Shown: in pieces, positions 4,879 to 54,978 of the stretch
How positions within the stretch are numbered: position 1 is the first letter of the stretch
How the letters are laid out: every line of letters starts with the position of its first letter
DNA from: Candidatus Cloacimonadales bacterium
GTDB taxonomy: Bacteria > Cloacimonadota > Cloacimonadia > Cloacimonadales > JAFGVF01
Assembly: GCA_963667035.1 (NCBI GenBank)
Contig: OY762964.1
Coordinates: forward strand, 2,624,001 to 2,688,000
Reading direction: 5' to 3'
DNA length: 64,000 nt
Made by a program: the position numbers and the translations under genes
The notes under the pieces: generated by a model
What the model was told of the DNA's origin: nothing
What the model saw: only the letters and a program-made list of their open reading frames with translations
Database searches by the model: none

Positions 4879-4895
4879 TGCACATTTCATGCCAA
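4879..4895 (-). promoter_or_regulatory. sigma54 (-24/-12) promoter of the pilin operon
   Basis: Minus strand TTGGCATGAAATGTGCA: GG-N10-GC spacing, matches TGGCAC-N5-TTGC consensus, ~40 bp upstream of the pilin ATG. Confidence 0.8.
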
Positions 4896-52071: not shown

Positions 52072-53124
52072 ATGAAGATATTAGTTACAGGAACAGCCGG
52101 ATTTATTGGATATCATTTAGTAAATAGACTTGTTAAGATAGATGGTATTGAAGTTGTCGGATTGGATATTATCAACGATTATTATGATTTAAGTGTCAAG
52201 TATGGTAGGTTAAATAATGCAGGTATTGAAATGGAGTTTATTAAACGAAATATACTGATTCAGAGTAATAAATATCCCAATTATAGGTTTATTAAGCTTG
52301 ATTTAATTGATCAGAAAAACCTATATAAACTATTTGCTGATGAGAAATTCGACATAGTTGTTAATCTTGCTGCTCAGGCTGGGGTTCGTTACAGTATTAC
52401 TAATCCTGATGCTTATATAGAAAGCAATATTATTGGTTTCTTCAATATTCTTGAAGCTTCAAGACATAACAAGATAAAACATCTTGTTTATGCTAGCAGT
52501 TCAAGTGTTTATGGATGGAATGAAAGTATGCCGTTCAGTACTTCTGACAATGTAGATCACCCAATAAGTCTTTATGCAGCAAGTAAAAAATCTAATGAGT
52601 TGCTAGCTCATTCTTACTCTGCACTTTACAATATCCCGACTACAGGTCTGCGATTTTTTACTGTTTACGGTCCATGGGGAAGACCTGATATGGCTTTGTT
52701 TATATTTACCGAGAACATCTTAAAGGGTGAGCCCATTAAGGTCTTTAATTATGGCAAAATGAAGCGAGATTTTACTTATATTGATGATATAGTAGAAGGA
52801 ATTAGAAGAGTAATTTTTAATCCTTCAGAACCAAACAAAGATTGGTCGGGAGTGGACCCTGATCCGGGTAGTTCAAAAGCTCCATATAAGATTTATAATA
52901 TTGGAAATAATTCACCTGTGCTACTTATGGAGTTTATAAATGCAATTGAAGAAACTCTTGGAATTGAGGCAAAAAAAGATTTATTACCTCTTCAACCTGG
53001 AGATGTCCCTGCAAGTCATGCGGATGTTACTGATTTGATTGAGAATTTAGGTTATAAGCCTGCAACCCCTATTAAAGAGGGTATTGAAAAGTTTATATCA
53101 TGGTATAAAGAATTTTATCAATAA
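52072..53124 (+). CDS. NAD-dependent epimerase, UDP-glucuronate 4-epimerase-like
   Basis: TGTAGFIG, NLAAQAGVRYS, YASSSSVYG, SLYAASKK, GLRFFTVYGPWGRPDMA, QPGDV. Confidence 0.92.
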   Translation: MKILVTGTAGFIGYHLVNRLVKIDGIEVVGLDIINDYYDLSVKYGRLNNAGIEMEFIKRNILIQSNKYPNYRFIKLDLIDQKNLYKLFADEKFDIVVNLAAQAGVRYSITNPDAYIESNIIGFFNILEASRHNKIKHLVYASSSSVYGWNESMPFSTSDNVDHPISLYAASKKSNELLAHSYSALYNIPTTGLRFFTVYGPWGRPDMALFIFTENILKGEPIKVFNYGKMKRDFTYIDDIVEGIRRVIFNPSEPNKDWSGVDPDPGSSKAPYKIYNIGNNSPVLLMEFINAIEETLGIEAKKDLLPLQPGDVPASHADVTDLIENLGYKPATPIKEGIEKFISWYKEFYQ

Positions 53125-53158
53125 TCTATAAGGGGATATTTATTATTCCCTTAGTTAT

Positions 53159-53199
53159 AAAAAAGCCATTTATCACCGGGGAGTATGGTGATAAATGGC
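53159..53199 (-). terminator. Intrinsic terminator oriented on the minus strand
   Basis: GCCATTTATCACC-ATACTCCCC-GGTGATAAATGGC-TTTTTT; the T tract exists only on the minus strand although both flanking genes are on plus. Confidence 0.85.
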
Positions 53200-53251
53200 A
53201 TGTCTATTAGTAAACCCTCTCGCCGACATTATATTACATATCTAATGTCAT
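53159..53251 (-). ncRNA. Candidate ~93-nt sigma54-dependent small RNA
   Basis: Bounded by a -24/-12 promoter (53262-53278) and a 13-bp intrinsic terminator with U tract; 5' hairpin GACAUUA/UAAUGUC; no meaningful ORF. Confidence 0.65.
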
Positions 53252-53261
53252 AATATATAAA

Positions 53262-53278
53262 TGCAGAAAGCGTTCCAA
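53262..53278 (-). promoter_or_regulatory. sigma54 (-24/-12) promoter
   Basis: Minus strand TTGGAACGCTTTCTGCA, GG-N10-GC. Confidence 0.7.
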
Positions 53279-53676
53279 TTACAAATGAAAACTTAATTTC
53301 TTTTATGTTAGGCAGTTAGCTGTTTACGTTAAATTTATTCCTTTTATTTATAATGATTTATTTTGGCATGATATCTATTTTAATGGAAAATGCTCCAATT
53401 ATTCTAAAAGGCACTATTACTCAAATATAACTATCGCTAATCAATCACTATATTTAGTTTTCATATACTAATAAAGCAATCGCTCCAAATTATGAATTTG
53501 CTCCATTTTGCCATAAATCTATAAATACTGTAATACCTACATTTTACGCATAATCAGAAAAAAGTTTATTCACAACTTCTTAACTTATTTGTTTACAATA
53601 TGAAGTTTGTTCATTTATTTTGACATACTTAGCTTGTTACAAATAAACAAGTATCATAAAATAAGGAGTTAATTCA

Positions 53677-54978
53677 ATGAAGAAAACATTATTAGTTTTA
53701 CTAACAATCACTGTATGCTTCTCCGTATTTGCTAATGGTTTTAATCTTAATACCGTTGGAGCAAGGGCTTTTGGTTTAGGTGGAGCAATGGTTGGTTTGG
53801 CTGACGATCCAACTGCATTTCATTGGAATCCTGCCGGATTAGCAACTCAGGATAGTTCTATTCAATTACTTGGTCATGACATTATACCTGCTTTAAGCTA
53901 TGAATATAGTTTGGCTGGAATTGATGCGGAATCAGAGACAAAACATTACCCACCACCAGCACTTTTCTGGAACCATAAGGTCAAACCAACAATGGCAATA
54001 GGTTTTGGTATGTGTGTTCCTTCTGCTATTGGTGCAGCATGGGACGGAAAGGATTTAATGGGGTTCAATGGCCCTGCTCATTATCCTGTGCCCGGAACCG
54101 GTATTGTTTTAGACAATATTTTGACTAGTCCTCTTGAGTGGGAAAGCCAAGTAATGGTTGCTCATTTTGGTCCTTCTATTGCATATCGAGCTTCAGAAAA
54201 ACTCTCTTTAGGTGCTACTGCGGAACTTAGTTACGGAAGCATGAAGCTTAACATGGGTGATGACCTTACGAACAACTTTGATGCTACTGATCAGACTCCT
54301 GATGGAATGATGGATACTCAGTATAATGAGGACTCATCCGGACTTGGTTTTGGTGTTAATCTTGGTTTAAAATACGAATTCAATGATGAATTCAGTATTG
54401 GTGCCGTATATCGTTCACCGGTTAGTTTTGCTTTTAAACAGGATGATGCTGAACTGGTTACTCCCAATGGTACATTGAATGCTGAAATGACACGTTATAT
54501 TACATGGCCAATGATGTTAGGATTTGGTACAGCTATTCAAGTTAAACCATATTGGACTCTTACTGCTGATGTTCAATATACTGAATGGTCAATTATGGAT
54601 GAACTAAAGACAGAGCTTGATTTTGATAACGATGCTCTGGACAGAGTTAAAGTTACTCATCTTGACTGGGTAGACGCTACTCAGTATAGAATTGGTAACG
54701 AATTCAAAGTGCATAAGATGTGGGATGTTAGATTAGGTTATTATTATGACCCTTCACCTGCACCAAATGAGACAATCAATATTCTTTTCCCTTCACATAC
54801 TTATCATGCTGTAACAACCGGTTTTGGTTATCATAATGATAAATTTGCCGCTGATTTAGGTTTTGAATATCTGATGGGAGACGAAAGAGAAGCTGTTGGT
54901 GTTTATGGAGCAGAAATGCCCGGTACATACCAGATGAATATAACTTCTCTGGCATTATCTCTTACCTATAAGTACTAA
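53677..54978 (+). CDS. OmpP1/FadL-family outer-membrane beta-barrel transporter
   Basis: NGF.LN..GARA.GLGGA..GLADDPTA..WNPAGL N-terminus, YTEWS, R.GYYYDPSP.P, C-terminal LTYKY. Confidence 0.9.
   Translation: MKKTLLVLLTITVCFSVFANGFNLNTVGARAFGLGGAMVGLADDPTAFHWNPAGLATQDSSIQLLGHDIIPALSYEYSLAGIDAESETKHYPPPALFWNHKVKPTMAIGFGMCVPSAIGAAWDGKDLMGFNGPAHYPVPGTGIVLDNILTSPLEWESQVMVAHFGPSIAYRASEKLSLGATAELSYGSMKLNMGDDLTNNFDATDQTPDGMMDTQYNEDSSGLGFGVNLGLKYEFNDEFSIGAVYRSPVSFAFKQDDAELVTPNGTLNAEMTRYITWPMMLGFGTAIQVKPYWTLTADVQYTEWSIMDELKTELDFDNDALDRVKVTHLDWVDATQYRIGNEFKVHKMWDVRLGYYYDPSPAPNETINILFPSHTYHAVTTGFGYHNDKFAADLGFEYLMGDEREAVGVYGAEMPGTYQMNITSLALSLTYKY

Follow-up and report, generated by a model that had tools for sequence, protein, structure and literature searches.

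Does the gap between two plus-strand genes of a single-contig, 3.10-Mb genome (G000, 35.6% GC) hold a small RNA gene under sigma-54 control, and what might such an RNA regulate? The DNA analysed (the window, 64,000 nt in all) is the stretch G000:C1:2624001-2688000. The candidate unit sits on the minus strand between an epimerase gene, the last of a polysaccharide operon, and an OmpP1/FadL gene, and its parts and neighbours are as follows.

52072..53124, plus strand: NAD-dependent epimerase gene (PF01370), convergent neighbour given for context; it also adjoins the unit in the related genomes G001 and G003
53129..53154, plus strand: separate hairpin 3' of the epimerase stop codon, visible in the sequence; probable terminator of the polysaccharide operon
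53159..53251, minus strand: predicted small RNA of 93 nt, with its start taken from promoter spacing and its end from the U tract; a covariance model finds it in 3 of 12 family genomes
53165..53199, minus strand: P3, terminator hairpin of 13 bp, followed by six U (53164-53159); 13/13 pairs kept, with 3 two-sided changes
53178..53186, minus strand: terminator loop AUACUCCCC, predicted to seed pairing at a ribosome-binding site (RBS) rich in G; CUCCCC invariant
53202..53215, minus strand: P2, small hairpin of 5 bp, predicted in three orthologues; 5/5 pairs kept, changes one-sided only
53211..53229, minus strand: 19-nt core AUGUCGGCGAGAGGGUUUA, invariant in three genomes and made up of the P1 3' arm, an unpaired purine linker and the P2 5' arm
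53225..53249, minus strand: P1, 5' stem (7 bp) closing an AU-rich loop that varies; 7/7 pairs kept in all three orthologues
53262..53278, minus strand: sigma-54 -24/-12 promoter box; TTGGAA-N7-TGCA invariant in three orthologues
53384..53397, no strand assigned: palindrome TGGA-N6-TCCA, probable enhancer (activator-binding site)
53677..54978, plus strand: gene for an OmpP1/FadL-family outer-membrane protein (PF03349), divergent neighbour given for context

Most of the anatomy proposed in the initial annotation was borne out. The minus-strand sequence TTGGAACGCTTTCTGCA at 53278-53262 is the sigma-54 box read there, and the -24/-12 spacing rule, from which +1 is placed, puts the predicted start at 53251 as first suggested. 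The 7-bp 5' stem is present in the sequence, and so is the perfect 13-bp terminator, whose loop is AUACUCCCC and whose six U run to 53159. The stretch GGCGAGAGGGUUUACUAAUAGAC exists as reported but is not unpaired throughout, as a 5-bp hairpin is predicted in it in 3/3 orthologues and about nine bases are left single-stranded. The statement that no ORF exceeds 5 codons proved incorrect: an ATG at 53229 on the minus strand opens 18 codons (MSARGFTNRHAIYHHTPR). Folding of 53155-53260 (minus) gives -29 kcal/mol (z -3.6), a stability matched by 1 of 200 shuffles and owed mostly to the terminator. A sigma-70 scanner reports a 9-of-12 site over the sigma-54 box bases, with 5 such sites in the region and 6.1 expected by chance. 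The TGGAA variant of the box also occurs at other intergenic boxes in G000.

Homologues in related genomes, for which a search had been proposed at the outset, were found. A DNA search of 61 related genomes returned orthologues in G001 (E 4e-25) and G003 (E 1e-13), both of the same genus, with similarity confined to the unit, and the covariance model, run on 12 family genomes, places the RNA in 3 of 4 genus genomes versus 0 of the 8 others. With up to two mismatches, an 18-mer matched 10 of 232 phylum genomes (three exact, these being the genus genomes, and seven with two mismatches) versus about 19 control matches, and none of the 232 had an exact match apart from the three. The RNA's sequence had no match in the viral contigs searched; an exact 17-mer gave 26 metagenome matches, in none of which a promoter or terminator was visible on inspection of the surroundings. 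In Rfam the window has no match at the gathering threshold, and the region gives five weak matches at chance level. A search of G000 found no second copy. Contigs came from three runs of one study; two span the stretch with 0 differences and are possibly its source data. In G002, the fourth genus genome (83% complete), the epimerase gene is followed by a convergent gene within 70 nt; since this locus is assembled without the RNA, the RNA is absent from that place and no assembly gap is involved. In genus g2 genomes (L297, L298, L299) short purine-rich tandem and palindromic repeats lie 3' of the epimerase gene, at the place taken by the RNA in genus g1.

The three orthologues keep TTGGAA-N7-TGCA, the 19-nt core, the CUCCCC loop and seven invariant P3 pairs. 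P1 shows two one-sided changes and one two-sided change among them, with a loop of variable length. Taking 25 pairs in three sequences, 75 of 75 cells are standard pairs and four pairs change on both sides, a result that is weak alone, with 16 of 500 shuffles doing as well and the structure drawn from the same three sequences. The stronger argument from conservation appears to be the divergence of the neighbouring gene compared with the kept unit: the three genomes agree at 16 of 78 fourfold-degenerate epimerase sites, which is the background for the invariance of the core in a comparison of three orthologue sequences, two of them close. We concluded that the unit is very probably a real small RNA gene. 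It would be an uncatalogued, genus-restricted gene of the sigma-54 type, and the surprise is limited, this kind of RNA being already known and its range being one genus.

Could the transcript instead be translated into a short peptide (MSARGF...), whether as its sole role or as one of two functions? The ATG and the first six codons are identical in three genomes, as such a peptide would require, but no RBS stands ahead, the AUG lies within stem P1, and the reading frame runs to 18, 19 and 31 codons. The invariant part shows no synonymous change, and the later changes alter residues and keep base pairs. The opposite-strand ORF across the unit has 16 codons in G000 and 14 and 36 in the other two genomes, with its AUG inside the 13-bp stem. 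We regard a peptide product as very improbable, and the 18-codon ORF is probably non-coding.

The neighbourhood bears on another reading, namely that the unit is no independent regulator and serves the polysaccharide operon as terminator or antisense brake, or is a silent remnant. The epimerase gene is the 3' neighbour in three genomes, and the operon hairpin of G000 is without a U tract (the equivalent hairpins of G001 and G003 have one), so that read-through is possible. Against this, the operon hairpin stands between the epimerase stop codon and the RNA 3' end in 3/3 genomes and is also found in G002, where there is no RNA; furthermore, the promoter, enhancer, loop sequence and 19-nt core are conserved, which is more than a terminator calls for. 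These points make the brake or remnant quite improbable. With the operon ending in its own hairpin before the RNA 3' end, the predicted transcripts would not overlap, and thus we do not read the unit as antisense. The convergence on the operon 3' end described earlier is correct as an arrangement but looks positional only. On the other flank, the OmpP1/FadL gene is kept beside the RNA in G001 and a glycerate kinase gene takes its place in G003.

The genome appears equipped for a small RNA gene of the sigma-54 type. Lack of rpoN had been named as grounds for dropping the idea; rpoN is present in G000 and passes the family cut-off, together with 11 full-size sigma-54 activators, and the box is kept in the three orthologues. 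A scan of G000 gives 131 sigma-54-like boxes, 21 of them intergenic and one before the pilin operon. That pilin box lies at 4879-4895 (minus) of the window, 59 nt upstream of a type IV pilin gene (PF07963) that heads a pilin/pilT operon. The co-regulation of RNA and pilin operon put forward in the initial annotation was not upheld, as no TGGA-N6-TCCA is found within 200 nt of the pilin box even with one mismatch. Five of the G000 activators have 700-780 aa (C1:2780193, 49468, 46248, 839597 and 1613344 among them); the one that was scanned has TPR repeats, and most lie beside genes for large secreted-looking proteins. As to RNA-binding proteins, Hfq (PF17209) and CsrA (PF02599) were not found in G000, which is 98% complete, and RapZ (PF03668) was found in 0 of 5 genomes searched.

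The palindrome TGGA-N6-TCCA lies upstream of the box by 120 nt in G000, 121 nt in G001 and 102 nt in G003, and in G003, where another gene lies upstream, it still accompanies the RNA. G000 holds 44 copies, 4 of them intergenic. None of the other 20 intergenic sigma-54 boxes of G000 is preceded by the exact palindrome, and with one mismatch allowed a site turns up, at -58, for one box out of 16 others examined. Across the phylum, palindrome plus box at the RNA's spacing is found in 18 of 232 genomes, versus 2 control matches. The 19 loci comprise the present RNA (3), a small RNA of family f4 (4), what look like protein-gene promoters (4) and matches that look coding or repetitive (8). At L183, L184, L190 and L192, in four other genomes, palindrome and box precede a protein gene with a signal-peptide-like start, and these may be additional regulon members. 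A search of the genus with closer enhancer spacing gave no convincing new site. Relaxing the pattern phylum-wide brought too much noise (matches in 58 of 158 genomes, a good part of them apparently coding) to confirm the distribution. Two more GCTCCA half-sites lie upstream of the palindrome at 53478-53507 (plus) of the window; G001 and G003 are without them, and they may belong to the fadL-like promoter.

The f4 RNA is itself uncatalogued, about 120 nt long, and found at L203, L204, L218, L225 and other loci, for example G014:C1:207337-207460 (minus). It consists of a sigma-54 box, a tandem TGGA-N6-TC(C/A)A, two C-rich hairpins, an invariant ACCUCCUAAGUC linker and a covarying terminator. The linker motif occurs in 32 of 69 f4 genomes. 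With at most one mismatch, the palindrome is present at about -110 or -90 in 20 of 30 f4 RNA promoters (shuffle mean 0.48), and in 16 of 26 after removal of the four loci found by the motif itself; TCAA is a frequent right half there. The halves of the f4 motif resemble DnaA boxes. At three of the four loci whose neighbours were inspected, the f4 RNA ends convergent on the same Fe-S-type gene. Three loci tested in Rfam gave no match, and no homology to the present RNA was seen in either direction (at most 15 bits), a weak test because the f4 model had 4 base pairs. The two RNAs are alike in the enhancer motif near -110, the sigma-54 box, a similar size, an intrinsic terminator, C-rich loops and the same activator in the genome; the f4 RNA differs in having two C-rich hairpins, an ACCUCCU linker instead of a purine-rich one and a tandem enhancer.

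Which activator would bind the palindrome? The candidate is a 468-aa NtrC-like protein (receiver-AAA-HTH) whose gene, G000:C1:795281 on the minus strand, is outside the window and unlinked to the RNA. The complete genome G014, which carries the f4 RNA, has only two sigma-54 activators, the orthologues of the 468-aa and 1433-aa proteins of G000, and four other f4 genomes share the same two. The 1433-aa protein is present in 131 of 158 genomes, including 9/9 other family-f1 genomes scored. The 468-aa protein is present in 4/4 g1 genomes and 66/69 f4 genomes, and this query finds it in 0 of 8 g2 and g3 genomes, which as far as searched are also without either RNA; the assignment draws on few independent lineages. 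The helix-turn-helix (recognition helix) differs between the g1 and f4 orthologues. No sensor kinase gene lies beside the 468-aa activator gene.

Upstream of the 468-aa gene there are two TGGA-N6-TCAA sites, at -49 and -128; sites of this kind precede only 7 of 715 starts within 100 nt. G001 and G003 retain the one at -49, which reads TGGC in G002 and overlaps an alternative inverted repeat as well as a likely -10 element of sigma-70 type. The f4 activator gene has an autoregulatory site in 0 of 28 cases at the positions checked, which stop short of the operon promoter, and apparent enhancer sites 341 nt before it were dropped as lying inside upstream coding sequence. The 780-aa TPR activator has one exact palindrome upstream in G000, not exact in G001 or G003.

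The terminator loop had been proposed as an anti-RBS seed. This gains support for a rare G-rich site and not for the usual AGGAG: GGGGAG is found in 13 of 2380 predicted starts in G000 and AGGAG in 608, and the loop appears to fit the former. Target prediction, also suggested initially and done in G000 only, gave the activator gene as the loop's top partner but no outlier for the core. With the 9-nt loop and a window of -25..+5, the 468-aa activator gene ranks first of 2380 with a 9-of-9 match; with a 13-nt loop query and a window of -60..+30 it ranks 8th (four query definitions were tried overall, and gene starts came from a simple custom caller). Each genome's own loop at its own activator site has an energy of -14.7 (G000), -12.8 (G001) and -12.7 kcal/mol (G003); against the G000 background, used for the G001 and G003 ranks as well, these fall in the top 0.04%, 0.34% and 0.76%. 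The predicted pairing is 6-9 bp and lies in a closed loop.

At their starts the activator orthologues have GGGGAGU in G001 and GGGAGC in G003. In G003, an A-to-G change in the loop is paired with a U-to-C change in the site (-12.7 kcal/mol versus -8.9 for the G000 loop on the G003 site), and C is the rarest base at that site position (78 of 1062). In G002, which is without the RNA, the activator start has an ordinary GAGGAG and ATG. The covariation counts as one event and the G002 contrast as one event, the trees leaving the order of G002 and G003 unresolved; bases flanking GGAG are often kept regardless (20 of 24 in G001, 8 of 12 in G003). Among f4 and f3 activator orthologues, where the gene lies inside an operon, GGGAG occurs in 0 of 28 starts. 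Two further GGGGAG genes of G000, ruvB and gene 772558, taken as controls, were rejected as loop targets after the G-rich site proved lost in G003. The pattern GGGGAG...ATG has 220 matches in G001 and G003 together, of which 30 among those listed were examined, and is of little use alone.

These results can be set against the possibility that the RNA acts in trans mainly on other mRNAs, through the core or the loop, with the match to the activator RBS incidental or minor. No part of the RNA is better conserved than the core, the 13 GGGGAG starts offer other partners, and genuine small RNA seeds are often short, with poor ranks in energy scans. Nevertheless, the best core target (-24.0) is not clearly above shuffled queries (-22.6 to -29.6), a genome-wide seed scan of G000 with the core gives no outlier, the best linker match (-21.0, shuffles -16.9 to -19.5) is the 3' end of tRNA-Sec, and in G003, as noted, the site is gone from both further GGGGAG genes tested. 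We consider this reading rather unlikely. Mimicry of 5S rRNA or tRNA-Sec by the core was discarded, as the genome's own sequences are without the core. A match upstream of hprK was set aside as one arm of a local hairpin.

The core, being purine-rich, might otherwise bind a protein or a C-rich RNA and serve as a sponge in the manner of GlmY, CrcZ or CsrB. Invariance in the RNA continues into stem arms, in the core and across 7 bp of P3, as would suit a protein or tertiary contact, and a second sigma-54 small RNA with C-rich anti-SD loops is encoded in G000 (C1:2978345-2978495, plus, L196), nearly identical in 4/4 genus genomes and without the enhancer palindrome. Against it, Hfq, CsrA and RapZ, the three RNA-binding proteins searched for, were not found, and pairing with the second RNA gives -8.1, -8.1 and -13.6 kcal/mol in different registers, with no conserved duplex. 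The leader G000:2273549 was likewise rejected as a partner, its complementary bases being lost in both G001 homologues. A sponge or protein-binding RNA is thus improbable in our estimate. This leader (C1:2273350-2273565, minus, L088) is structured, carries an RBS-ATG element (ATG-TAA in G000) before a gene of about 192 aa, is kept in the homologues L091 and L092 with two copies in G001, and has no Rfam match.

The reading that we put forward is negative feedback of the small RNA on its own activator, independent of Hfq and similar to Qrr/LuxO. It draws on four partly independent signs on one gene, namely the top loop match, the activator class, the enhancer-like sites and the co-occurrence, and we hold it to be quite possible though short of probable. 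In such a circuit the phosphorylated 468-aa activator would bind TGGA-N6-TCCA about 120 nt upstream, sigma-54 polymerase would start at about 53251, and the RNA would end at the U tract of the intrinsic terminator. The terminator loop (N-N-A/G-CUCCCC) would then pair without Hfq with the G-rich RBS in the short A-rich leader of the activator mRNA, block ribosome loading and lower activator translation. The activator may in addition dampen the sigma-70 promoter of its own gene, and there is probably a second partner, served by the invariant 19-nt core. A more far-reaching version is doubtful: an independently evolved Hfq-free circuit of an uncultured phylum, in which one conserved activator and its enhancer drive unrelated small RNAs in two families, loop and private RBS co-evolve, and the core passes outputs to a partner. 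If the feedback loop is real, it would provide an activator, an enhancer, an RNA and a target site, each of them named, for reconstruction in a laboratory strain; small RNA feedback on a sigma-54 activator would then arise without Hfq, and a promoter module could persist while the RNA under it is swapped.

How does the present RNA compare with known ones? The Cuckoo and alpha-r14 RNAs have several hairpins, each with a CCUCCUCCC-type loop, unlike the single C-rich loop here, which is CUCCCC and has no Rfam match. CsrB and RsmZ carry repeated GGA loops; here no GGA loops appear in the predicted folds and CsrA was not found. CrcZ and CrcY act through Crc-Hfq, unlike an RNA from a genome in which no Hfq was found and that matches no Rfam family. 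Judging from the accessible parts of the sources, GlmY, NrsZ and CrcZ/CrcY resemble it as small RNAs tied to sigma-54 (RpoN) control, and GlmY is a decoy for RapZ, the protein found in 0 of 5 genomes here; Rfam gives no match in this case either. Our literature search, whose coverage excluded subscription journals and supplements, turned up no publication about small RNAs in the phylum or its sigma-54 control, and its one match on the phylum was an unrelated CRISPR paper. An RpoN-linked small RNA of Campylobacter (PMC11187230) has, in the available part of the report, no bearing on the mechanism here.

S17 of Bordetella pertussis represses a sigma-54 activator at the RBS but is Hfq-dependent, made from a sigma-A promoter and processed by RNase E, and in the portion of the report available it exerts no feedback on its own activator, unlike the proposed circuit (PMC11722255). 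Closer in mode of pairing are CJnc190 of Campylobacter jejuni and RepG of Helicobacter pylori, which, according to the accessible part of the source, act without Hfq by pairing a loop rich in C and U with a G-rich RBS or leader, which blocks translation; CJnc190 is processed by RNase III, has an antisense partner and targets ptmG and a chemotaxis receptor (PMC8687705). The present RNA likewise comes from a genome in which Hfq was not found, and its conserved loop would pair with a G-rich RBS in the manner which that source describes (6-9 bp predicted, one compensatory change); it differs in having no homology to them, no Rfam match and a range confined to one genus.

The closest parallel in circuit design is Qrr1-4/LuxO of Vibrio cholerae, in which, in the part of the report at hand, a response regulator and sigma-54 drive small RNAs, Qrr pairs over the luxO RBS and LuxO represses its own promoter (PMC2632942). 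Unlike Qrr, the present RNA has no sequence or structure match in Rfam, is single-copy, comes from a genome in which Hfq was not found, would use the terminator loop as seed and has an unlinked activator gene. Like Qrr, it has a sigma-54 promoter box (3/3 orthologues) in a genome with rpoN, a likeness that is motif evidence. Sigma-54 activation, pairing at the RBS and autorepression of the activator, shown for Qrr in the available text, are the three features predicted here.
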